Below, piece after piece: positions 2,596 through 56,583 of a stretch of 64,000 nucleotides of DNA. The notes under the pieces were generated by a model, which was given only the letters and a program-made list of their open reading frames with translations, ran no database searches and was not told where the DNA came from. Location: NCBI GenBank assembly GCA_012729715.1, contig JAAYCQ010000147.1, positions 1,624 to 65,623 of the forward strand. Direction: 5' to 3'. The DNA is from Syntrophomonadaceae bacterium. GTDB lineage: Bacteria > Bacillota > Syntrophomonadia > Syntrophomonadales > Syntrophomonadaceae. The first letter of the stretch is position 1; every line of letters begins with the position of its first letter. The position numbers and the translations under genes were made by a program.

Positions 2596-4437
2596 ATGGC
2601 TGCTAATTTTGCATATCAAAATATAAGAGATTTTGAGTTTATTATTCAAGAATGGCTACCCACGGAGAAGATTTTTAATTATCCGCAATTTGCCGACTAT
2701 TATTCCAAAGACGATATCAAATCAGTTCTGGGACCAATTCTTAAAATGGCCAAAGAGGTCGTAGAACCCACTAATGAGGATGGCGACCTAAATCCGGTTA
2801 AATTAGAGAACGGTAAAGTTACCCTGCCACCAACCTTTGGACCGCTTTTCAAACAGTTGCAAGAGGAAGGCTGGGGAACCAGTAATATTGATGAATCCGA
2901 AGACGCCATGGTATTACCGCATATCCTGCATTCAATGGTATGGGAAATGCTGGCTGCGGCCAATCCCACTTTTGGCCCTTATATTATATTAACCAGTGGT
3001 GCTGCCGGACTGATTCAGAGTTTCGGTGACGACCACCTGAAAGAAATGTTCTTACCCAAGATGATGGACGGAACCTGGTCCGGAACCATGTGCTTGACTG
3101 AACCTACTGCCGGTTCCGACGTAGGCGACATTTTATCCCGGGCTTATCCTACCGATGATCCTCGTCTTTTCAAAATTAAGGGAAGCAAAATATTTATAAC
3201 CGGTGGAGACAATGACTTCACCGAAAATATTATTCACCTCTACCTGGCCCGTATTGAGGGTTCCAAGCCGGGTACCAAGGGCATTTCCCTTTTCGTAGTA
3301 CCGAAATACTGGGTTAACGAAGATGGCAGCCTGGGTGAACTAAACGATGTCGAAACTACTGCTGCCGAGCATAAGCTGGGACAGCATGGATCCTGCACTG
3401 CGGCTCTGTCCTTTGGCGAAAACAACACCTGCCGCGGCTGGCTTTTGGGTGTAGACCCACGGGAAAACGATGGCAAAGGCGAAGGTATGGCTCAGATGTT
3501 CCAGATGATGAACGGTGCTCGTATGGAGACCGGACATGCTGCTCTGTCCTGCATTGCCAACGCTTACTATAACGCTCGTGACTACGCTAAAGAGAGAATT
3601 CAGGGACGCCCGCTGACCAATCCCAAGGGCGACCGGGTTACTATTATAAACCATGAAGACATCAAACGGGCTCTGCTCTGCGGCAAAGCTCATGTTGAAG
3701 CCATGAGAGCCATGATGTACAAGACCTACTTCGCTTTTGACGTACGTGCCCATGATCCGAATGAGGAAGAAAGAGCCAAAGCCAATGAACTGATAGAAGT
3801 AAGTACTCCGCTTTGTAAAGCTTATCCTTCCGATGAAGCCTGGTGGCTGATCGGTGAAGCCATTCAGTGTTATGGTGGCTATGGATACTGTGAAGAATAT
3901 CCGGTAGCCCAGATTGCCCGTGATGTAAAAATCTACTCCATCTGGGAAGGAACCAACTATATCCAGTCCATGGACCTGATTGGACGCAAATGGCTGATGA
4001 AGAAGGGTGCAGCTTTTGGAGGATTTGTCCAGGAAATGAGAGATTTCTTCGAAGCTAACAAGGGTGCCGAAGGCTTCGAAAAAGAATTTGAAAACCTGGG
4101 TCGGGCACTGGATGCCTACACCCAGATTCAGATGGCTATCGGCGGCTATTTTGGCAATAAGCAATATGGCATGATGCCGACCTTTGCCCGCCGCATCCTG
4201 ACTGCTACCTCTCAGCTCTACTGTGGCCGTCTAATCCTTGACCAGGCCTTGCTGGCAGCCAAGAAGGCTCAAGAAGTTGGTCCTGACCACTTCGACTATG
4301 AATTCTATACCGGTAAGGTACTTGCTGCCCGTTACTATCTCAGGAATGTAGTTCCCAATGTATGGGCAGTAGCTGAAATCGTTAAAGACGGAGACACCTC
4401 GGTTCTCGATATTCCCATTGGAGCATTTGAATACTAA
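2596..4437 (+). CDS. acyl-CoA dehydrogenase, long type
   Basis: 613 aa with RBS ggaggga 8 nt upstream. It carries the ACAD middle-domain motif GTMCLTEPTAGSDVG and C-terminal blocks YPVAQIARDVKIYSIWEGTNYIQ. Confidence 0.92.
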   Translation: MAANFAYQNIRDFEFIIQEWLPTEKIFNYPQFADYYSKDDIKSVLGPILKMAKEVVEPTNEDGDLNPVKLENGKVTLPPTFGPLFKQLQEEGWGTSNIDESEDAMVLPHILHSMVWEMLAAANPTFGPYIILTSGAAGLIQSFGDDHLKEMFLPKMMDGTWSGTMCLTEPTAGSDVGDILSRAYPTDDPRLFKIKGSKIFITGGDNDFTENIIHLYLARIEGSKPGTKGISLFVVPKYWVNEDGSLGELNDVETTAAEHKLGQHGSCTAALSFGENNTCRGWLLGVDPRENDGKGEGMAQMFQMMNGARMETGHAALSCIANAYYNARDYAKERIQGRPLTNPKGDRVTIINHEDIKRALLCGKAHVEAMRAMMYKTYFAFDVRAHDPNEEERAKANELIEVSTPLCKAYPSDEAWWLIGEAIQCYGGYGYCEEYPVAQIARDVKIYSIWEGTNYIQSMDLIGRKWLMKKGAAFGGFVQEMRDFFEANKGAEGFEKEFENLGRALDAYTQIQMAIGGYFGNKQYGMMPTFARRILTATSQLYCGRLILDQALLAAKKAQEVGPDHFDYEFYTGKVLAARYYLRNVVPNVWAVAEIVKDGDTSVLDIPIGAFEY

Positions 4438-4512: not shown

Positions 4513-4746
4513 ATGCTCATATATATTAACAAGTAATTGTTATATGAGCATTTTAAAAAGAGGGAAGGGAAAGTAAGGCTTACAATAAAGTTAATTGTTA
4601 ACTTGATAGTCAAGCTGAGAGTTTGAGCTGCTATGAGGGGTACTTCATAATTTGTTATCAGCTTAAGATTAGCGATTTTGCAGGGTTTACACTTTATTGC
4701 TCCACCTGATAACAATTTATGAAGAGAAGGGAGGAAAGGTGCTACT

Positions 4747-5238
4747 TTGGAAGAAAGATTTTTTAAAATTGGTGAAGTGGCAGAAATATTAGAAATAGAA
4801 CAGCATACCCTGCGCTATTTGGAAAACTCCCTCAAGTTAAAAATTAAAAGGAATGAGCGGGGTGATCGCCTCTATACTGATTCTGACCTTGACACCCTGA
4901 GACTGGTTCTGCAATTAAAAGACAAGGGGCTTAATACCACAGCTATAAAACTGGCTCTGGAAAATACCGAGGAAAGTGAAGAAACTAGTCTGGCTCCCAA
5001 AAGCGGGGCAGCTACTCAAGACCTGGTGGAAATGGTATCCCTGACCCGGCAGATTGTAGAGCAAAATACGGAATTAATGCAACAAAACCGGCGTTTAGAA
5101 CAAAGGATGGAGAAGTTAGAACAGAAAATTGAGCAGAGAAATCTGGATAAGGAAAAAAAGATAGATGAGTTTTTAACTCTCTGGAAAGCCGACCAGGAAG
5201 CAAAAAAATCCTGGCTCTCGCGCCTAAGGGGTAAGTAA
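4747..5238 (+). CDS. MerR-family HTH protein with a C-terminal coiled coil
   Basis: The N-terminus FKIGEVAEILEIEQHTLRYLE ... LYTDSDLDTLRLVLQLKDKGL is a MerR-type wHTH. The C-terminal half is Q/E/K-rich heptad-like. It has a TTG start with RBS gggagga upstream. Confidence 0.8.
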   Translation: MEERFFKIGEVAEILEIEQHTLRYLENSLKLKIKRNERGDRLYTDSDLDTLRLVLQLKDKGLNTTAIKLALENTEESEETSLAPKSGAATQDLVEMVSLTRQIVEQNTELMQQNRRLEQRMEKLEQKIEQRNLDKEKKIDEFLTLWKADQEAKKSWLSRLRGK

Positions 5239-5466
5239 GTTTAATGCACGCGGATCACGCGGATGAGGCCGGATTTACGCTGATTTTTTTGACACTGAAT
5301 ACAGTGCTACCTAAATAGTACCGATAGGTACATCCGTGTCGTAATCTGTTTTCATAGGTGGTTACATGTGCCTAGCAAACATGGAGGTTAACGACTAGTT
5401 CCTTATTAATATTCAGTGTTAATCATAAAAAATCAGTGTTATTCAGTGTCTAATAAAGTCTATTTT
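5239..5466. repeat. mosaic intergenic repeat, family A (AGAAAATAGAC terminus plus arrays of 8-10 nt words)
   Basis: The reverse complement of 5400-5468 aligns with 12905-12966 (agaaaatagaNc..ttagacaYtgaataYactga..aacactgaat). Word arrays are cacgcggatcacgcggat at 5247-5264 and attcagtgtt..attcagtgtc at 5411-5450. Confidence 0.75.
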
Positions 5467-7164
5467 CTATCCCATTAATTGCAGAAAGGCCAGTAGTTTA
5501 TACATTAATAGAACGGAATAATCAGAGGAAGGCTGGCTGGAGAATTGGTCCAGGTATTCCTCAAAGTCCTGTAGCAGGCGGGGATTAGTGTCCGGGTAGA
5601 GCCGGATTAAATCCAGGGCGGTTTCCTGATGAGAGAGTAGATTGGGAAAAAGCTGCTTCTCATTCACTGCGCTGTTAAGTTTGTTATTATCTTTGCCCAC
5701 TTCCATAGTAGAGGCGCCCAGATTCAGGTAGAGGTCTACCAAATCCTGCTCTATTTCCTCATCATCAACTTGTAAAACCAAGTCCTGTCCCATGAATTGT
5801 TCCACTTGAGCTTGCAGGTCAGCCGAATCCAGCTCATGAACCCTTAATTTAAGGCTATTAGTATTAGTTGCCAGGTTATAAGGCGAAGCGACTGGAACCG
5901 TAAAAATTTTGTGCCTGCCGTTAATATCAAGCTCCAGATTCTCAGTATCAAAGGGTAGCTTTTCCAGAATAGTTCCGGTTCCAACCGGATTCCATTTCTC
6001 AATAAAAAAATTAAAGGGATAAATGGTTTTTACCCTTAAAAAAGAGGATGATCCTGCTTGCTTCCACTGGGATAACCCTCTGACTACGTTAAAACTAAGA
6101 TCCTGGGGATGAATAATTTCAGGTCCAGGACATATATCAGCTATCAACTGGTTTACTCCCCGGGTTTGCGAAGCTCCCCCTAGCAGCAAGAGATAATCCA
6201 GAATGAAACGACCTTCCCGGGAAAAACCAAGTAATTCCCCTTTTTCCCGGACGCGTTCATTAATATATTTTTTTAAACGGGTAAAAACAGGCTCCAGCTG
6301 TGCCATGAACAGTTCTGCCGGCAAATCAAAAACTAAAGAATCCTGCTGGTAGAATCCTGGTATGTTAAAATATGCACTACTTTGCCTGCCAATTGCTACC
6401 TTGACCTGTTCCGCTGTTACCATAAGGCGGTTGAACCAGTATCTTTCTTCTCCCTGTAAATTCTTTTCGCTGGTGATAGGGGCAGGTATATCATAACCGT
6501 GTTGCATCTTAAATAGAGGGTTTAAGATAAAACGTAAAACTCCCCGATCCAGCTCGCTGCCAGAAAAGGCATCATGCCCAATCTGAAACTGACTCTCCAT
6601 GACAATTTCATTGTGTTTATGAGTCATACTAAGAAAACTGAAGTCAGTAGTCCCGCCACCTATATCCACACAGAGTATGTCTCCTTCTAATTGCTCCTGA
6701 GCATGAATAGCATTATAGCCCAGTAAAGCAGCAACTGGCTCTGGCAGAAGGTAGACTTCGCTAAGGCCGAAACTTTGACGAACCGCTTCCAGTAACATTT
6801 TTCTAGGTTTAAGCCCAAAATAATTAGGGACTGAAACCGTAATGGATTCCAGCTCCCCTCGCCACACCTCTACATATTCATCCCGCAGATAATTAAAATA
6901 TTCCCTGAGTATATCATTCAGGGTAAATGGTCCTAGCCTAAAGTCCGGGTTGCGCTTCATTTCCAGCTTAAAAAAACGGACTTCCTCAGCTCCCGGCTGG
7001 TTAAGCCGCATCGCCATTTTGCCGAAAAATAGCTTTTCGCGTGAGGGTAGGTAAACTACCAGGGTAGGTATCTGGTTTTCCTCACCAACCAGATTAATAA
7101 AATTGCCCTGGTCCATATACCCCAATTTAGTATATGAAGTTCCAAAGTCTATTCCCAGGTGCAT
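5467..7164 (-). CDS. Hsp70/actin-fold ATPase with a non-DnaK C-terminal region
   Basis: Phosphate-1 GIDFGTSYTK lies at residues 4-13 when the ATG at 7164 is used. Phosphate-2 is VDIGGGTTDFS and the adenosine motif is LLLGGASQTRGV. The start at 7164 sits 4 nt after the stop of the upstream gene. The 7224 start in the ORF track would overlap that gene by 56 nt. Confidence 0.85.
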   Translation of the reverse strand: MHLGIDFGTSYTKLGYMDQGNFINLVGEENQIPTLVVYLPSREKLFFGKMAMRLNQPGAEEVRFFKLEMKRNPDFRLGPFTLNDILREYFNYLRDEYVEVWRGELESITVSVPNYFGLKPRKMLLEAVRQSFGLSEVYLLPEPVAALLGYNAIHAQEQLEGDILCVDIGGGTTDFSFLSMTHKHNEIVMESQFQIGHDAFSGSELDRGVLRFILNPLFKMQHGYDIPAPITSEKNLQGEERYWFNRLMVTAEQVKVAIGRQSSAYFNIPGFYQQDSLVFDLPAELFMAQLEPVFTRLKKYINERVREKGELLGFSREGRFILDYLLLLGGASQTRGVNQLIADICPGPEIIHPQDLSFNVVRGLSQWKQAGSSSFLRVKTIYPFNFFIEKWNPVGTGTILEKLPFDTENLELDINGRHKIFTVPVASPYNLATNTNSLKLRVHELDSADLQAQVEQFMGQDLVLQVDDEEIEQDLVDLYLNLGASTMEVGKDNNKLNSAVNEKQLFPNLLSHQETALDLIRLYPDTNPRLLQDFEEYLDQFSSQPSSDYSVLLMYKLLAFLQLMG

Positions 7165-7168
7165 AGCC

Positions 7169-8749
7169 TTAACCCTTCTGGGCGATGACCAGGTAAGGAA
7201 TTTCCTCCTCCAGCAGTTCATCAACCCGAATAATAAAAAGATCCCCTTCTTCGTGCAATATCAGGTTATCTTCCTGGTCATCCTGGCAGAGGTGGGTTTC
7301 AACCAGATGCTTGTCTAAGAGATAAATATATTCCGAGGGCAATACTTGTCCCTTCTGCAGGGGAATCCGGTCAACTTTGATGTTTACTTCTTTCCAAGCT
7401 CGCGATATATTACGGGGAGCCAGTATTCTCTCCAGGTCACCCCGGATATTGGCCAGTATATTCAGGTAGTTATCCAACATATTAACAATAGTTAATAAGT
7501 GTTTGAGAACTTCATTATGATGTTCCTGCTTCTGGTTTAGTAAATCTATCCTGGTTGTAAGTAAAGAAAGTTGTAGTTCTACCCGGTTTAGCCCGTTAAG
7601 CAGCTCGGGGAAACAAATTAACTCTTTGGTAGCTAACGAACCTCTAAGCAGGAATGACGCCGGCTCTAAAATCTCTTGAATTTTAGTACTGAAATAGGTG
7701 AAATCAGGCTCTCCGGAGCCGGATAATTCACTGGTTATGCCGGTAATTGTTTTCACTATATTAAGACTGTCATCATTTAATTTATTTACAGTGTCGATAA
7801 GCATTTTATTCGGACTGATAGCTGTGGATAAAATCGGGGTATACGGGGAGGCCTTTTCTAAAAGCATAGTTAAACCAGCTAAAAAGTTTTCTAAATTTGT
7901 TACACTACGATTAAGAACTTCGGACTGTTCACTGACCAGACCAAGTTGAATGGCATCAAGATAGAGGCTAATTGTAGATTTAACGTGAACCTCATAAAAG
8001 TTTATTAAGGTCTCAGTATCAGCCGTCCGTGAAAATACCGGTGTTCTCTTTTTTATTTCCTCAATTATCCCGCTAATTTGCTTACTATCCTGCCGAGGTT
8101 GAACCCGGGATAAGGCCTTTACCGGGTAGGTTAGATAAACCAGCAAGCGGTTAATGGCATCAGCCTGAAGGTGGTTGTTGCGATCCAGTGAAGAAATCAT
8201 CTGCAGTGCGGGAATAGCTGCCGGGTGGGTTTGAACTAAAAACATTAATTCCCCGTCTTTTAACCAAGTATTAATCCTGGAGATTAAGGCATTAAGATTA
8301 ACAAATTCATTTTCCAACTGCTTTAAGGTATATAATAACTCCACTGCACGGTGGTCTTGCTCCCGGCTAAGAGACAATAGACTCTGGCCTGCATTTTCCC
8401 TGGACTTGTTACATATGGATAAAATACTTTTAACCTGATTATACAGTTTAGCATAACGTTTAATATTAGCCATGATATCCATTTTAACCATGGTTTCCTG
8501 TCTGCTTAATTTCAGCAACTGGGAAACCTCTTCCTGAACTGAGCTACGGTAACGAGGAAAAAGCCGTTCGGTAAAGCTGCGATAATAAAAAGAGTTAAGC
8601 TCAAAAATATAATTATCCAGCTCTTCACCCATTTCTGCAAAAGAGGGAGAGGGAAGGGACTGTTCTATTTCCTGTCGCAGCGAGGATAAAACTTGCTCCA
8701 GTTTGGCGGCAAAAAAATCCGGGTTAAATTTTTCATTGCAATCCATCAT
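7169..8749 (-). CDS. hypothetical protein, 526 aa, predicted helical/coiled coil
   Basis: Long ORF with no family motif I recognise. Its start codon overlaps the stop of the upstream gene (ATGA at 8746-8749), and the Hsp70-like gene follows 4 nt downstream. Confidence 0.7.
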   Translation of the reverse strand: MMDCNEKFNPDFFAAKLEQVLSSLRQEIEQSLPSPSFAEMGEELDNYIFELNSFYYRSFTERLFPRYRSSVQEEVSQLLKLSRQETMVKMDIMANIKRYAKLYNQVKSILSICNKSRENAGQSLLSLSREQDHRAVELLYTLKQLENEFVNLNALISRINTWLKDGELMFLVQTHPAAIPALQMISSLDRNNHLQADAINRLLVYLTYPVKALSRVQPRQDSKQISGIIEEIKKRTPVFSRTADTETLINFYEVHVKSTISLYLDAIQLGLVSEQSEVLNRSVTNLENFLAGLTMLLEKASPYTPILSTAISPNKMLIDTVNKLNDDSLNIVKTITGITSELSGSGEPDFTYFSTKIQEILEPASFLLRGSLATKELICFPELLNGLNRVELQLSLLTTRIDLLNQKQEHHNEVLKHLLTIVNMLDNYLNILANIRGDLERILAPRNISRAWKEVNIKVDRIPLQKGQVLPSEYIYLLDKHLVETHLCQDDQEDNLILHEEGDLFIIRVDELLEEEIPYLVIAQKG

Positions 8750-10206
8750 AATACCCCCATAAATTGACCGGCTAAAAGATCGCGACGGATATTCTCGCCC
8801 TTCTTTCTAAACAGGTGCGGGCGCGATGATAGTTCGCTTCTAAGCTCAGCGCTGTTCATATTGTATCTAAGCTCTATTATCCGTTGGGCTTGATAACGAC
8901 TATTATCATCTACCAACGGTGCTATTTGGTTTAGCAGCTCATCATGCATAAATATACTACTGGGAAGCCATTTCCACAGTGATATATAATTACCCAGCAA
9001 CTGTGAGGCCATTTTTCCCTCCAGTTTCAAGCGACCCTTAAACTCCAGCAACCGGATTAATTCCATAGTGATAAACGATTCATGGGGAAGAGTAGATAGC
9101 TTTTCTTCCAGGACTTTAAATAGTTGTTGCAGGTGTTCCTGGCTTACGCCAATTTCAATTTCCTCATCCATTAACAGAGGAAACTCTGCTGGTCGCAATT
9201 GTTCAATTTTTTTGCTTATATATAATACTTCCAGCAAGCTATCTTTTTTAAAGCTTCCAGGAAGCGTTTCCCATAACTTGAGGTACTCAAGGGGGGCAGC
9301 TTCGGGGCTAATTAAAGGGAAATAGTTCATATACAGATTATTAGCATAATTATAAGCCTGCAGTGGTTCATAGATCAGGGTGTAAATTGGTATAACGGCA
9401 CGAAGTAACTGTTGCAGCTCTTTGTAAATCTTCTGGTCGTTGATTATATTTACCAGGCGATTTTTTTGCTGGTAATCACAATAAATCTCCAGTAGAAATG
9501 CCAGGCTATCCTCAAGTAAACCACACTTAAAGACTAGTTTAGCAGCCTCTATTTGTAGGATAAAACGTTCTGTTGTGTACGGATCCTGGAAACGGTCGGC
9601 ACTGCTATCCTGTAAGATGGCTATGGCTTCCCGGATAAGTTCTACCTTATCTCCATACGGAGTGGGGTAATCGCTCTTTTTACCAAACTCCGTCAGACCA
9701 TAATAGGAGTCCAGACGAAGCTCTCTAAGCTTGGCCTGCCGGTCTTTTAGCAGTTGCCGTAATCCCGGACTAGCCGTTTTAGAGAGGAGATGAACACAGC
9801 TGTCCTCATCCAGGATATTGATTACGGTCATAATAGCAGGCGCATATTCTTCCTTATATATACGGGCGATAAATTCCAGTTCCGCTGGTCTTACCTGATG
9901 ATTAAGGATATACCAGGGTAGGAATTGCCAAAAATCATCTATTACACGGGTAGGGGCACTAACTAACCATTCCATCACCGGTAAAAAACGCAGGTTAGCA
10001 AACAGAATTTTGAAGAAATCAAATTTGCGTTCCGCGAAATAGAGGGAGCGGTAAAGCAGATTTACCCCTTCTTTACTGTCCACCATTACCGGGACAGTTA
10101 AAGGAGTCTGGCGCAGAACACTGCGCAGCAATAATTCCTGTTCCCAGAAACTAAAGAGATCTTCATCATCTGTTATATTCCTATACTGTTCCAGAATGTC
10201 CTGCAT
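8746..10206 (-). CDS. hypothetical protein, 486 aa, predicted helical
   Basis: Long ORF with no P-loop or other motif that I recognise. It is the first gene of the coupled trio. Confidence 0.7.
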   Translation of the reverse strand: MQDILEQYRNITDDEDLFSFWEQELLLRSVLRQTPLTVPVMVDSKEGVNLLYRSLYFAERKFDFFKILFANLRFLPVMEWLVSAPTRVIDDFWQFLPWYILNHQVRPAELEFIARIYKEEYAPAIMTVINILDEDSCVHLLSKTASPGLRQLLKDRQAKLRELRLDSYYGLTEFGKKSDYPTPYGDKVELIREAIAILQDSSADRFQDPYTTERFILQIEAAKLVFKCGLLEDSLAFLLEIYCDYQQKNRLVNIINDQKIYKELQQLLRAVIPIYTLIYEPLQAYNYANNLYMNYFPLISPEAAPLEYLKLWETLPGSFKKDSLLEVLYISKKIEQLRPAEFPLLMDEEIEIGVSQEHLQQLFKVLEEKLSTLPHESFITMELIRLLEFKGRLKLEGKMASQLLGNYISLWKWLPSSIFMHDELLNQIAPLVDDNSRYQAQRIIELRYNMNSAELRSELSSRPHLFRKKGENIRRDLLAGQFMGVL

Positions 10207-10211
10207 ATTAT

Positions 10212-10384
10212 GGTGAGGAGTGAGGCGTCAGGAGTGAGGGGACAGTTAAGTAAGAACTCCTCATTTTTCAAGCGTCTCTTCCTCTTCTCTTCCTTTCATT
10301 GGTTTATTTATTTGTAAGGAGTGAGGCGTGAGGCACAAAGGTGTGGGGGCGGACCCATGTGTCCGCCCGGCTAGCCCCCCACTC
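10212..10384. repeat. mosaic intergenic repeat, family B (GTGAGG-like hexamer arrays plus a GC hairpin)
   Basis: Arrays are ggtgaggagtgaggcgtcaggagtgagggg at 10212-10241 and gtaaggagtgaggcgtgaggc at 10314-10336. The hairpin gggcggac/gtccgccc is at 10347-10368. Related hairpins occur at 41662, 55506, 56516 and 58910. Confidence 0.8.
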
Positions 10385-11074
10385 CTAACTATAAAAAGCA
10401 ATATTCAAAACCCGGCAGGCGTTTTGGGCTTTCATCGGGTCATTTTCGCTTAGATAAACAAAATAATAAATGGATTTATCCTTATTGGTAAAAATACCTC
10501 CCAAACGGTCATCATCTATACATTCAAACTTGTCCATAGCAGCCTTATTACGGTTCAGATAGCGATAAGTTTGCAGCCGGGTAACAAAGGAATAACGTGC
10601 CAGCCTTTCAAAGTGAGATTTTAAGCCAATCTCTTTACCACTATTATCGTCTTCATATTTATATACTATTTCACCCTGGCGGGGTTGGGGTAAAACATTC
10701 ATATTAGCAACGGCCTGGTTTAAGGACCGTAATAACTTTCGTAAAACCTGGCTATCAACCTGCTGCTTAAAGGTATATTGCAGGTAAGGATGCAGGGTTT
10801 GGGGAAATTCCTCCAGGGGCAGCGGATCTATTGCAAATAAATGCAAGGCCTGGGGGTGCTCCAGCAAATAATTTATAAGGTCATCCCAACCGTGTTGAAA
10901 ACGGGGGATAAACGTATAATAATCTTGGTATAGCCGAAAAGCATACTGCTCATAAAAAACAGCATAGGATTCCGGGGAATTATGCATAAGATGGTTGGCA
11001 TAATCCATAAGCTGCTGGTATTCATCAGCACCCAGTTCTACCCCTTGATTAAGTTTTCTTAAAATACTTCGCAT
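10385..11074 (-). CDS. hypothetical protein, 229 aa
   Basis: ORF with coding-like composition and no recognisable motif. Confidence 0.6.
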   Translation of the reverse strand: MRSILRKLNQGVELGADEYQQLMDYANHLMHNSPESYAVFYEQYAFRLYQDYYTFIPRFQHGWDDLINYLLEHPQALHLFAIDPLPLEEFPQTLHPYLQYTFKQQVDSQVLRKLLRSLNQAVANMNVLPQPRQGEIVYKYEDDNSGKEIGLKSHFERLARYSFVTRLQTYRYLNRNKAAMDKFECIDDDRLGGIFTNKDKSIYYFVYLSENDPMKAQNACRVLNIAFYS

Positions 11075-11109: not shown

Positions 11110-11141
11110 CCCAGAAAGAAGTCCGGAAACAGTCCGGACTT
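11110..11141 (-). terminator. hairpin, possible terminator after the 73-aa gene
   Basis: Stem aagtccgg/ccggactt (11119-11126 and 11134-11141), followed on the minus strand by cttct. The U-tract is weak. Confidence 0.4.
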
Positions 11142-11153
11142 ATGTAGAGTATG

Positions 11154-11375
11154 TTAATTGCTGCTAGAATTTACGGGTAAGCGGATATCAAAAAGTATTT
11201 CATCTTCCAAATTAGAGAAATCAATAATAATGCCATCTTCCATTAGCATGGTAATATTGGTCTCAGTACAGTTTAAAATCTTCTTAATGGCTTTGCCTTC
11301 CATATAGCGGGTAAGCATTTGATAATCTTCAACTAAAAACTTTGAAATCTGACCATGACCCATTATAAAATTCAC
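11154..11375 (-). CDS. hypothetical small protein, 73 aa
   Basis: ORF with an ATG start. No motif recognised. Confidence 0.5.
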   Translation of the reverse strand: MNFIMGHGQISKFLVEDYQMLTRYMEGKAIKKILNCTETNITMLMEDGIIIDFSNLEDEILFDIRLPVNSSSN

Positions 11376-11473
11376 CTCTTATTATTAAGTATATAGATTT
11401 AAACCCCGATAGTTACACCTGAAATGCAATAAACTTTAGGGAAAAATGGGTTTATGATGTAATTAAGGTTAAA

Positions 11474-11515
11474 ATATAATGAGGCGTGAGGAGTGAGGAA
11501 TCAGGAGTGAGGAGT
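11474..11515. repeat. family B hexamer array abutting a start codon
   Basis: Sequence atataatgaggcgtgaggagtgaggaatcaggagtgaggagt. The first 21 nt are identical to 43513-43533. Confidence 0.8.
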
Positions 11516-12124
11516 ATGAAATGGAAACAATTTAATTTGATAATATTCCCGCTGCTGGCCTTAATTTTTTTCCTGCTGGTTGCGTCTGCTAACCGCCATG
11601 TTTTTAGCAATGAAAATGCGGTTATGTATACCTACGTGCAAAATGCCCGCCAGGGCCATATAGGTTATGGTTTCAATAGTTATTACGCTAATAATATTTC
11701 ATTTGCCGGGTTGGAACCAGGAGACTTAATTCTAGGGGGATATCCAGGTTGTTCTTACGGGCGTTTTTCTCATGCCGGAATTTATATAGGTAATGGACAG
11801 GTTATGGAAAGTTTCGGCGATCTCGGGGTTAATATACAACCTATTTACCATTACTGGGAATATAGTGATGTTTGTTTATTAAGGGTTAAAGCTGACCCGG
11901 TGGTGAAAAAAAAGGCAGTTGATTATGTACTTAGACACCAGGGCGCCATGTTTTATCCTCTGGCCTTTAAAAATGGTGAAAGATATTGGAATTGTACCAA
12001 GATAATGTGGAAAGCTTACCGGGGACAGGGACTTGATTTTGACCCGGGGAATGATTTCTGGGTTGCTCCCGACCTTTTTTACCAAAGCGACCTGGTTGAA
12101 ATAATAAGGGAGAGGAATGTATAA
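11516..12124 (+). CDS. YiiX/YaeF-like permuted papain-fold (NlpC/P60 superfamily) hydrolase with an N-terminal TM or signal anchor
   Basis: His motif FSHAGIYIG precedes Cys motif WNCTKIMW, which is the permuted order. The N-terminal hydrophobic segment is LIIFPLLALIFFLLV. The start was moved to ATG 11516 because the ORF-track extension is encoded by the repeat array. Confidence 0.65.
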   Translation: MKWKQFNLIIFPLLALIFFLLVASANRHVFSNENAVMYTYVQNARQGHIGYGFNSYYANNISFAGLEPGDLILGGYPGCSYGRFSHAGIYIGNGQVMESFGDLGVNIQPIYHYWEYSDVCLLRVKADPVVKKKAVDYVLRHQGAMFYPLAFKNGERYWNCTKIMWKAYRGQGLDFDPGNDFWVAPDLFYQSDLVEIIRERNV

Positions 12125-12558
12125 TGCGAAGCCTCAAAGCTATTACTCGTTTATACTCTATTCATATTTTTGCTTTTTTAGCTGTAGGAATTAGCACTTA
12201 CTACCCGCCCTGGGATATTATACTCTCTCTATTATACTTGTTGGTTATCGGGAGCGAAGCCCGTTCATTACGAGATTTTCCTCCCCATTCCAAATGGATG
12301 GTAACTTTTGCCTGGCAAGCTCCGGGGATAGTGCTTTTTCTACTGGTTATCAGCCATACTACCATCTGGGACCTGAGTAATTATGCCTACTTTATTATGC
12401 TCTTCTGGTATACTGCTTTAGTTCCTATACTCTCTTTACTGCCAGGCGTATTTTGGCGTGGATGGCCCCTGTACTACTATTTTCTTCTTGCTTTGCCCTT
12501 TATTATGATTACCTACCATTTTATTTTAAGCTGCAATATTCGGCTAACAAATAAATAA
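12124..12558 (+). CDS. hypothetical integral membrane protein, 144 aa
   Basis: Four hydrophobic segments. The start overlaps the upstream stop (taATG). Confidence 0.6.
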   Translation: MRSLKAITRLYSIHIFAFLAVGISTYYPPWDIILSLLYLLVIGSEARSLRDFPPHSKWMVTFAWQAPGIVLFLLVISHTTIWDLSNYAYFIMLFWYTALVPILSLLPGVFWRGWPLYYYFLLALPFIMITYHFILSCNIRLTNK

Positions 12559-13234: not shown

Positions 13235-13984
13235 ATGTATAGAATGAGAGGAGAGTTCCTGGTGAAGTCCGGTAAAAAGAGCATTTTCCCTAAAATAATA
13301 TTATTGTTTATGCTGCTCCCGCTGGGTATACCTTTTTTAATACCGGAGATAGGATTGGCTTATAGTGGCGTTACTTATCAGCTAATTGCTAAAGAAAAAA
13401 TTGTAGCTCTTACTTTTGATGATGGACCTCATCCTATTTATACACCGCAGATTCTTGATATCCTGGATCAGTATCAGGCTAAAGCCACCTTTTTTATGAT
13501 AGGCAGCAGGATGGAGGAATATCCGGATATTGCAAAGGAGGTTTCAGCCCGGGGACATCTTATTGGTAACCATACTTATACTCATCCTGATAACCTCAGG
13601 ACACTATCTCCAAAAGAGCTGAAGTGGGAAATAGACCAGTGCCAGCTTAGTATGCAACGTATCGCTGGTCAAAACACTTACCTATTTCGTCCTCCCCGGG
13701 GTATTCTGAATCAGGAAATTATTAAAATCGTACAAGATAAAGGTTACACTATTGTGCTATGGGGAATTTGTACTTTCAATCGTAGCGCCCCAACTCCAGA
13801 AATGATGGCAACCCGGGTGATTAACTATGCTCACCCGGGTCTTATAGTATTATTACACGATGGCAGAACTGATTTTCGTTGGAAAGATGTAGTGGCTACC
13901 CGCTTAATCGTTGAAAACCTTTCCCGCCAGGGTTATCGTTTTGTCACCCTGGAAGAACTTAAACCGGGGAACAAACCTCATTAA
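13235..13984 (+). CDS. polysaccharide deacetylase (NodB-homology, PdaA/PgdA-like), secreted or membrane-anchored
   Basis: Contains TFDDGP and GNHTYTHP metal/catalytic motifs plus LLHD. An N-terminal hydrophobic segment is present. The exact start is uncertain; an in-frame GTG lies 9 codons downstream. Confidence 0.85.
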   Translation: MYRMRGEFLVKSGKKSIFPKIILLFMLLPLGIPFLIPEIGLAYSGVTYQLIAKEKIVALTFDDGPHPIYTPQILDILDQYQAKATFFMIGSRMEEYPDIAKEVSARGHLIGNHTYTHPDNLRTLSPKELKWEIDQCQLSMQRIAGQNTYLFRPPRGILNQEIIKIVQDKGYTIVLWGICTFNRSAPTPEMMATRVINYAHPGLIVLLHDGRTDFRWKDVVATRLIVENLSRQGYRFVTLEELKPGNKPH

Positions 13985-14007: not shown

Positions 14008-14040
14008 GTTACGCCTTACGCCTCACCCCTCACACCTTAC
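14008..14040. repeat. family B hexamer array (CCTCAC orientation)
   Basis: Sequence acgccttacgcctcacccctcacaccttac. Confidence 0.7.
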
Positions 14041-41646: not shown

Positions 41647-41715
41647 GGTACAAAGGTGTAGGGGCGGACCCATGTGTCCGCCCGCTTATTACCTCACCCC
41701 TCACCCCTTACTCTT
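41630..41715. repeat. family B repeat (array, hairpin, inverted array) overlapping the murI 3' end
   Basis: gttaggattagtgaggcataagg, acaaaggtgtagggg, hairpin gggcggac/gtccgccc (41662-41683), then cctcacccctcaccccttactc. Confidence 0.8.
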
Positions 41716-56509: not shown

Positions 56510-56583
56510 TCGGCTGGGCAGATACACGGGTCTGCCCCTACAATTCCTTACCCCTCACACCTAACACCTAACTCCTTACTCTA
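56510..56583. repeat. family B repeat (inverted orientation)
   Basis: Hairpin gggcagat/gtctgccc at 56516-56537, ctacaat, then array ccttacccctcacacctaacacctaactccttactc. Confidence 0.8.

Follow-up and report, generated by a model that had tools for sequence, protein, structure and literature searches.

Hsp70 proteins specialised for few clients include HscA, which works with IscU, and HscC, which works with DjlB/DjlC, while an atypical Hsp70, Ssz1, belongs to the yeast ribosome-associated complex (RAC; Ssz1-Zuo1), where its partner is a J-domain protein. Hsp70s also occur in GTPase-centric conflict systems, in which TRAFAC GTPase(s), with or without tubulin, or a GAP1-N2 GTPase are found with Hsp70, GrpE and DnaJ/TPR-FNIII (Kaur, Burroughs, Iyer and Aravind 2020, PMC7159879). 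The locus analyzed here, the operon D-A-B-C, encodes an Hsp70-type protein (C) together with three apparent orphan proteins (D, A and B). It lies in a 64,000-nt stretch of DNA from a Syntrophomonadaceae bacterium (assembly GCA_012729715.1, contig JAAYCQ010000147.1, positions 1,624 to 65,623 of the forward strand), hereafter the window, to which the coordinates below refer. D-A-B-C is a vertically inherited core locus in fixed chromosomal synteny, and its products are tentatively interpreted as a lineage-specific cytoplasmic complex built around a highly divergent, architecturally complete Hsp70 paralogue, a reading whose probability we place a little below even.

Organization and conservation of the operon

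The window contains four consecutive minus-strand genes, D, A, B and C, preceded by a small open reading frame (ORF), S69. The genes and the domains discussed below are:

11154-11363, minus strand: S69, soluble ORF of 69 amino acids (aa), upstream of D
10385-11074, minus strand: D, soluble protein of 229 aa, upstream of A
8746-10206, minus strand: A, soluble orphan protein of 486 aa
7169-8749, minus strand: B, soluble orphan protein of 526 aa
7172-7396, minus strand: C-terminal region of B (about residues 452-526), predicted small six-strand beta domain
5467-7164, minus strand: C, 565 aa counted from the ATG
6070-7164, minus strand: residues 1-365 of C, Hsp70-type nucleotide-binding domain
5467-6069, minus strand: residues 366-565 of C, tail

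An earlier note, made from the sequence alone, had described three minus-strand genes of 486, 526 and about 565 aa (A, B and C) packed with an ATGA overlap and a 4-nt gap, and all of these features were read in the sequence. The ATGA at 8746-8749 is the stop codon of A overlapping the start codon of B, and the stop codon of B (TAA, 7169-7171) is followed by a gap of 4 nt (7165-7168) and then by the start of C, with a G-rich, Shine-Dalgarno (SD)-like stretch 5' of both the B and the C start. The longest mechanically called ORF of C reaches a TTG at 7224; because all 35 aligned C homologues begin with MHLGIDFG or a near variant, the start of C was placed at the ATG at 7164. No transmembrane-length hydrophobic segment was detected by hydropathy in S69, D, A, B or C.

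The same tight packing was found in related genomes. A and B overlapped or were at most 2 nt apart in 34 of 36 genomes (4-nt overlap in 18, 1-nt overlap in nine), the B-C gap was at most 8 nt in 32 of 37 genomes, and the D-A gap was at most 36 nt at 34 of 36 junctions, mostly 1-36 nt. The retention of start/stop overlaps across the family argues for a fixed stoichiometry rather than casual co-transcription. Unlike nearly all of its relatives, the window genome has a D-A gap of 178 nt. This spacer is a repeat insertion, so that the mosaic repeat which the earlier note had taken for the upstream limit of the locus lies inside the operon and is not its boundary. The proposal of a three-component system also had to be revised: D lay directly upstream of A in all loci reaching that far, often with S69 before it, and the unit is one of four genes, D-A-B-C, or of five counting S69, rather than a trio. 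S69 may be the first gene of the unit. Wider spacing was seen at the A-B junction of L012 (341 nt) and at the B-C junctions of L020 (301 nt) and L029 (about 1.2 kb, with a C-like ORF truncated at its N-terminus); these gaps may be insertions like the D-A repeat of the window or, in L029, reflect pseudogenization of C.

To assess the distribution of the locus, a profile of B was run against GTDB with each species represented by a single genome, and 44 loci were returned. All 44 came from Syntrophomonadaceae, including S. palmitatica, S. wolfei subsp. methylbutyratica and many metagenome-assembled genomes (MAGs), and the locus was apparently single-copy, with one per genome. Based on tblastn and ORF extraction, the order D-A-B-C on one strand was present in every locus long enough to show it, about 31 of which carried all four genes. 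Since the four genes occurred together in every informative genome, the co-conserved and translationally coupled module around an Hsp70-fold protein that had been suggested for this DNA is borne out. Named homologues were all from Syntrophomonadaceae, except for a few MAGs labelled, for example, 'Gelria' or 'Deltaproteobacteria'. An exhaustive HMMER search of 1.84 billion representative proteins with the A profile retrieved 92 proteins, nearly all of them family members or fragments, and the only match outside the family was a weak hit to a repetitive 907-aa protein. A search for A in 72,556 plasmids and in 50,697 phage genomes gave no hit, nor did one with the B profile in IMG/VR viral contigs.

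The flanking genes were better conserved than those of the operon: among the neighbours, median identity to the window was 75% for the large acyl-CoA dehydrogenase (ACAD), 75% for the YaaH-type transporter, 67% for the MerR regulator and 54% for the amidase, and within the operon it was 50% for D, 42% for C, 35% for A and 33% for B. The identities of operon and neighbours co-varied across loci, and this joint rise and fall is the pattern of vertical descent. The locus is neither mobile nor island-borne: in the informative Syntrophomonadaceae loci it stood in the same place with the same neighbours, and not in the patchy distribution, variable context and association with mobile elements that mark defence islands and mobile loci. 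No earlier description of the cluster was found in the searchable literature, where searches for Syntrophomonas with Hsp70, or for proteome data on these genes, returned nothing relevant; public annotation labels C as 'Hsp70 family protein' or 'DnaK-like' and the other operon proteins as 'hypothetical'.

Protein C: nucleotide-binding domain, tail and ATPase-dead orthologues

The three Hsp70/actin-fold nucleotide motifs reported earlier for C are present (GIDFGTSYTK, VDIGGGTTDFS and LLLGGASQTRG), and the motif set is intact, with phosphate-1 (DFGTS), EPVAA, phosphate-2 (DIGGGTTD) and adenosine (LGGAS) motifs. A profile of 36 C members matched the nucleotide-binding domains of BiP and DnaK over residues 3-365 (E = 2.5e-25), with the EPxAA, DxGGGTxD and GG motifs aligned. 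Because the family profile matches these domains with their motifs in register, C is best classified from its sequence as having a true Hsp70-type ATPase domain and not as a relative of actin, MreB or ParM. The Pfam HSP70 model (PF00012) gave a partial match (E = 3e-12; 45.9 bits against a cut-off of 20.6), and C fell under every NCBIfam equivalog cut-off, with 54.3 of 331 bits for PRK11678 (YegD-type), 49.2 of 822 for DnaK and 41.3 of 708 for HscA. Actin-like matches (MreB, 26-30 bits; BeeR, 25 bits; ParM, weak) stayed far short of their own cut-offs and were weaker than those to Hsp70. The relatives of C number about 88, most of them full-length, with identities down to 34%, followed by an abrupt drop to generic Hsp70s at E = 1e-9, with which C shared 25-37% local identity in the nucleotide-binding domain only.

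With the E. coli J-domain and GrpE as queries, phmmer detected neither of them in the window, nor in any of 50 related loci (806 kb in total), and the precomputed Pfam annotation of neighbours likewise showed none; taken together, these searches place no J-domain or GrpE within 10 kb in any of the 50 loci. The earlier remark that no DnaJ or GrpE gene lies near C therefore extends to its relatives.

The AlphaFold model of residues 362-565 of C (26 sequences, pLDDT 80) comprised seven beta strands followed by three helices. The strands make up a beta domain at about residues 385-489, in which IYPFxFYIE and PFDTxNLELD are found, and the helices make up a C-terminal bundle at about residues 509-564. 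When this model was searched with Foldseek against 350,542 PDB chains, the top 24 matches were nearly all Hsp70 substrate-binding domains or full-length Hsp70s, the best being 7ko2_D (E = 4.8e-3, prob 0.97), 1dkx_A and 6zhi_C. At the sequence level, no similarity between the tail and the Hsp70 substrate-binding domain was detected by HMMER or by hhalign against a generic Hsp70 alignment. The earlier description of a tail unlike that of DnaK thus stands for the sequence and gives way, weakly, at the level of the fold. The invariant tail motifs come in the order IYPFxFYIE (P-F-x-F-x-I-E), IPFDT, RIYE, FxGQExVL and IYLNL, which in our reading is parallel to the DnaK strand motifs TPLSLGIE, TIPT, IHVLQGE, LGxFxL and IEVTFDID. 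With moderate confidence, the tail is read from its model as most likely a substrate-binding domain that has diverged strongly and whose lid is short, in which case C would be a complete Hsp70 and not an actin-like filament former. Between VVRGL and IYPF, the linker of about 19 residues was variable (SQWKQAGSSSFLRVKT in the window), with only S-x-K-T as a family consensus.

Most lineages, the window protein included, have kept the ATPase motifs of C. Eight of the 38 species-level orthologues (in four groups: L018, L019, L022 and L037; L023 and L038; L028; L029) lacked the phosphate-2, adenosine and EP motifs, with about 100-220 residues gone; these ATPase-dead proteins were 343-465 aa long, and both their tail motifs and their operon were kept. 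Two further divergent operons (L047 and L048), obtained from the exhaustive search for A, consisted of D-, A- and B-like genes followed by a C-like gene. In L047 this gene encodes 393 aa, has no recognisable ATP-binding motif and retains IYPFSF...LPFDRHKLEL. The L047 operon, the most divergent one, again adjoins the large acyl-CoA dehydrogenase; an extra gene of 269 aa without Pfam family (4669-5478 of that locus) lies between the degenerate C-like gene and the dehydrogenase. In a neighbour-joining tree of D+A+B, calculated without support values, the dead forms were spread over three or more distinct clades that also contain intact sisters, in addition to the two deep branches L047 and L048. 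The ATP-driven premise of the earlier note consequently fits most lineages and fails in several, where an ATPase-dead C is found in an otherwise intact operon. The loss of the ATP motifs with retention of the tail and the operon suggests that the constant part of C is the putative clamp and scaffold rather than the ATPase.

Partner proteins, upstream signals and flanking genes

Walker A, HPD and HExxH motifs were all absent from A, B and D, in agreement with the earlier statement that A and B bear no P-loop or catalytic signature. No Pfam or NCBIfam family was found for A, B or D, whether single proteins or every member of the alignments were scanned, and the partners A and B thus proved unassignable to a known family, as the earlier note had supposed. 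Scans with PADLOC and PHROGs gave no consistent family for the three proteins, with the exception of a weak DUF2103-type lead for D. Based on these searches, A, B and D appear to be orphan families confined to the Syntrophomonadaceae lineage. A and B were also considered as paralogues, which was ruled out by hhalign of A against B. A is conserved over its full length and rich in aromatic residues; no PDB relative was found for it with profiles of 22 and 50 sequences. Profile searches of the PDB gave no match for D and only coiled-coil noise for B.

B comprises a conserved N-terminal motif region with ELNSFYYxSF, a poorly conserved helical middle and a highly conserved C-terminal region. Its AlphaFold model (36 sequences, pLDDT 85.5, pTM 0.59) was helical from residue 10 to 451, where two of the helices are 124 and 63 residues long, and ended in a six-strand beta domain at residues 457-524. 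The all-helical, coiled-coil protein described earlier is therefore found in the first of these parts and not in the second. The most conserved part of B is the beta domain with the end of the preceding helix (LERILAPRNISR), which contains the majority of the invariant residues of the protein; those of this part are L439, R441, A444, P445, N447, R450, K453, G502, D503, F505 and P518. B is thus predicted to be a long antiparallel coiled coil or a set of helical bundles with a small C-terminal beta domain. Foldseek searches of the PDB and BFVD matched generic coiled-coil arms only (Rad50, the MukB elbow, the dynein stalk, chemoreceptors and viral SbcC/SMC), and with TM scores of at most 0.25 the resemblance to SMC arms is generic. 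A GrpE-like reading of the last 145 residues of B, suggested by their layout (long helix plus beta domain), gave no signal with Pfam GrpE, PDB profiles or phmmer, in searches that took B as a whole.

D is the best conserved protein of the operon, and its C-terminal half (about residues 132-224) contains many invariant polar residues. In ten of 33 D members, this half matched the PADLOC model PDLC01930 (CARF7--CARF_DUF2103; best E = 2.5e-6) in its C-terminal portion, which lies outside the CARF domain. DUF2103-type domains are uncharacterised putative effectors found in CRISPR type III and Menshen contexts (PMC12065111). As the Pfam DUF2103 model had no match in D, the PADLOC match is treated as a domain-level lead and not as a system match. 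Other marginal single-domain matches in PADLOC-DB v2 were those of C to PDC-M61B (E = 6e-4) and of B to the DndD coiled coil (E = 8e-4), and no system-level match was obtained there for A, B or C.

The regulatory, repeat and flanking features of the locus are:

11388-11417, minus strand: promoter-like element 5' of S69, with TGTAAC, about 15-18 nt, CTATATACT and then the Shine-Dalgarno sequence AGAGGTGA
11112-11142, minus strand: hairpin AAGTCCGGA / TCCGGACTT followed by TCTTTCT, between S69 and D
10207-10384, no strand: D-A insertion, with CCTCAC(N) heptamer-type repeats and a GC-rich hairpin GGGCGGAC / GTCCGCCC
5272-5457, no strand: repeat-rich spacer between the convergent C and MerR genes, with inverted and direct copies of the TGACACTGAATA box
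4747-5238, plus strand: MerR-family regulator (Pfam MerR_1, E = 1e-18) with a coiled-coil tail, convergent with C
11486-12558, plus strand: NlpC/P60 / Peptidase_C92 amidase and an overlapping 144-aa membrane protein (12124-12558), from Pfam and hydropathy

Homologues of S69 were found by tblastn upstream of the operon and in the same orientation in at least 20 loci (36-93% identity), and genes of 61-65 aa are called at the S69 position in L049 and L050; S69 matched no Pfam or PHROG family. Upstream of S69, 19 aligned loci shared (G)TGTAAC(C/T) - N15 - TCTATATAAT - N10 - AGAGGTGA, also written TGTAAC-N15-CTATATAAT or TGTAAC-N15-CTATATA, with the 'AAC' of the -35 element kept in 15 of the 19 sequences. 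This element is compatible, equally well, with a sigma-A and with an extracytoplasmic function (ECF)-type sigma factor. The hairpin between S69 and D, which was read by eye and went unreported by the terminator scan, is a candidate attenuating terminator and may act as such. No known RNA element was found in the window with Rfam.

The CCTCAC-type motif of the D-A insertion occurred in 19 copies in the window against 2.9 expected. It forms a dispersed intergenic repeat (10207-10384, 11482-11512, 14021-14037, 41692-41708, 56553-56576 and others), with tandem copies immediately 5' of the amidase gene and in the D-A gap, and reads GTGAGGA(G), which is SD-like, on the opposite strand. It could be a repetitive extragenic palindromic (REP) or miniature inverted-repeat transposable element (MITE)-like element, or a translation-related motif. 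The copies of the TGACACTGAATA box in the C/MerR spacer form 18-nt arms 138 nt apart, and the box showed a mild excess (11 copies in the window, 4.2 expected); the repeats of the C/MerR spacer are probably outside the system.

Downstream of the operon lie the MerR regulator, the YaaH-type transporter and the large ACAD. Two ACAD copies of the type of about 613 aa (19-1146, cut at the window edge, and 2596-4437) stand on either side of the YaaH-family gene. The MerR gene was downstream in most loci and was replaced by PspC/LiaF genes in Ca. Syntrophocurvum; any link of this neighbour, conserved in most but not all genomes, to the operon is putative. On the other side, the membrane-anchored amidase is transcribed divergently from the operon, and the amidase and membrane-protein pair is conserved across genera, in most loci as well as in L049 and L050. 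In Ca. Syntrophocurvum alkaliphilum and an S. erecta-type contig, too, the pair stands divergent to the operon, with other genes on the downstream side. The listed GTG start of the amidase ORF (MRSEESGVRSMKWKQF...) falls inside the GTGAGGAG repeats, and the true start is probably the ATG near 11516 (MKWKQFNLIIF, followed by a hydrophobic anchor). In many genomes (L018, L019, L021, L022, L023, L024, L026, L028, L029, L031, L034, L037, L039, L042), a polysaccharide-deacetylase paralogue, 30-34% identical to the product of 13235-13984 in the window, was present in the stretch of about 600 nt that immediately precedes D, after the small ORF and in the same orientation; there the operon may include a wall-modifying enzyme. 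The amidase and membrane-protein neighbours are a weak hint at an envelope-related process.

Proposed function and comparison with known systems

In the Hsp70-centred complex proposed here, the products of D-A-B-C, a unit often preceded by S69, would assemble into one stoichiometric complex around C. The clamp-like tail, which alone among the parts of C is retained by all lineages, would hold a segment of a partner or a dedicated client, and in most lineages this interaction would be gated by the ATP cycle of the nucleotide-binding domain. A, B (through its coiled-coil arm and conserved beta-domain tip) and D would be dedicated cofactors or obligate clients that take the place of DnaJ and GrpE, and where the ATP motifs have decayed, C could act as a constitutive holder or scaffold, in the manner of the atypical Hsp70 Ssz1.

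Several points weigh against this proposal. The physical association of D, A, B and C is a prediction from the genes. The fold matches of the C tail were weak (E = 4.8e-3 to 0.6, TM 0.2-0.36) and came from a single AlphaFold model built on 26 sequences. Allosteric Hsp70s have a hydrophobic interdomain linker (VLLL in DnaK); a linker of this type is not conserved in the C family, so that coupling of ATP to the clamp may not operate. Other regions of the genome could encode J-proteins and GrpE that serve C, and the adjacency to envelope genes may reflect mere synteny across the family.

Three other explanations were weighed. It is unlikely that C is an ordinary auxiliary Hsp70 using the housekeeping DnaJ and GrpE, with A, B and D as preferred co-transcribed clients or unrelated genes. 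The intact catalytic motifs of the window protein and of most orthologues, together with the precedent of few-client Hsp70s such as HscA and HscC, count for it, but C scores 49-54 bits against curated equivalog cut-offs of 331-822, its lid and the linker between its domains have changed strongly, a folding cycle driven by J-proteins and exchange factors is hard to square with ATP motifs that vanished in several lineages while gene and operon stayed, and the family-wide start/stop overlaps argue for fixed stoichiometry. A cytoskeletal or shape- and envelope-positioning device, with B and C as a scaffold directing the neighbouring wall enzymes, for instance in the curved-rod shape of Syntrophomonas, is slightly less probable. 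Syntrophomonadaceae cells are curved rods, and the 124-residue helix and long coiled-coil arms of B, the weak matches of C to MreB, BeeR and ParM-type models, the divergent membrane-anchored C92/NlpC-P60 amidase and membrane protein adjoining the operon, and the polysaccharide deacetylases, glucosaminidase and LiaF/PspC genes nearby in several genomes would agree with such a device. However, the match of the C nucleotide-binding domain to Hsp70 (E = 1e-25) is far stronger than those to actin-like families (25-30 bits), and the tail of C resembles a substrate-binding domain, which leaves the filament-former reading raised in the earlier note weak. To our knowledge, no Hsp70 forms cytoskeletal filaments; furthermore, ATPase-dead variants of C exist, B is predicted to fold back and not to extend as a filament-type rod (pTM 0.59), and the adjacency of wall genes may be plain synteny.

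The probability is also low that the locus is a domesticated or lineage-fixed conflict module, directed against phages or mobile elements, in which the effector would be D, and sensing or thresholding of an invasion signal would fall to the Hsp70 together with the coiled-coil protein. Its case includes the matches of 10 of the 33 D members to the C-terminal part of CARF7--CARF_DUF2103 (best E = 2.5e-6), the proposal of DUF2103 and DUF2103-like domains as effectors (PMC12065111), the precedent of Hsp70s in GTPase-centred conflict systems (PMC7159879), an evolution of A, B and C about two times faster than that of their neighbours, and the resemblance of the B model to coiled-coil arms of SMC/Rad50/DndD type. 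Against these stand the absence of a system-level PADLOC match for A, B and C, the failure of the Pfam DUF2103 model on D, and the absence of any GTPase, tubulin, STAND, nuclease, protease, TIR or other recognised effector. Whereas defence systems typically have a patchy distribution and variable islands as their setting, D-A-B-C is apparently single-copy in every informative genome of the family, at a constant position among housekeeping neighbours. The defence reading of the earlier note is weak because the locus is core, syntenic and absent from the phage, plasmid and viral collections, IMG/VR contigs among them.

Hsp70s are generally regarded as dependent on J-domain proteins and exchange factors. 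A protein C with private partners that are neither would, if real, represent a different use of the Hsp70 clamp, and the sister lineages that lack the ATPase and keep the rest form a comparative series on which parts of the cycle are needed. The operon can, moreover, serve as a signature locus for the whole family of syntrophic fatty-acid oxidisers, organisms of central importance in methanogenic digesters. Its narrow taxonomic range and lack of a phenotype limit its immediate importance.

Compared with DnaK, HscA and HscC, C has all the Hsp70 signature motifs in its nucleotide-binding domain and, as modelled, the same order of nucleotide-binding domain, linker of about 20 residues, beta domain and helical C-terminus, and the best, though weak, fold matches of its tail are substrate-binding domains of DnaK type. 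It differs from them in having no substrate-binding domain detectable by sequence, no conserved VLLL-type linker and a lid of three short helices, and its neighbourhood contains three orphan partner genes instead of a J-protein or GrpE. YegD, MreB, ParM and BeeR share the ASKHA fold with C, whose top NCBIfam E-value was to PRK11678; however, these matches span the phosphate-2 region only (25-54 bits against cut-offs of 293-530), and C has Hsp70-specific motifs and a tail of 200 residues, similar to a substrate-binding domain, that are absent from those proteins. The B model aligns weakly with the long antiparallel coiled-coil arms of SMC, Rad50, SbcC and MukB, and B has a weak PADLOC match to the DndD coiled coil, but it lacks a Walker A/B ATPase head, a hinge and a zinc hook. 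D-A-B-C resembles the GTPase-centric conflict systems in combining an Hsp70 paralogue with non-chaperone partners in a multi-gene operon, with D as a possible effector-like protein. In contrast to them, the operon and its flanks encode no TRAFAC GTPase, tubulin, GrpE, DnaJ-FNIII or effector-associated domains, and the locus is core, syntenic and vertically inherited, not patchy.

By analogy, the closest functional counterpart of C would be Ssz1 in the yeast ribosome-associated complex. The two differ in that the D-A-B-C locus has no J-domain and in that the ATPase motifs of C are intact in most lineages, and they would stem from evolutionarily unrelated events. What they would share is an apparently stable subunit of a dedicated complex, derived from Hsp70, that keeps scaffold and clamp although it can do without ATP hydrolysis or has lost it; for C, this is seen in the ATPase-dead orthologues within intact operons. 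A bolder and more doubtful extension of the Hsp70-centred complex is that D-A-B-C is an Hsp70 machine of the Syntrophomonadaceae's own, in which three new families (DUF2103-like, 486-aa orphan and coiled-coil arm) would replace J-proteins and exchange factors, and whose ATPase would have decayed repeatedly to a pseudo-enzyme scaffold, making it a bacterial counterpart of the Ssz1/RAC repurposing.

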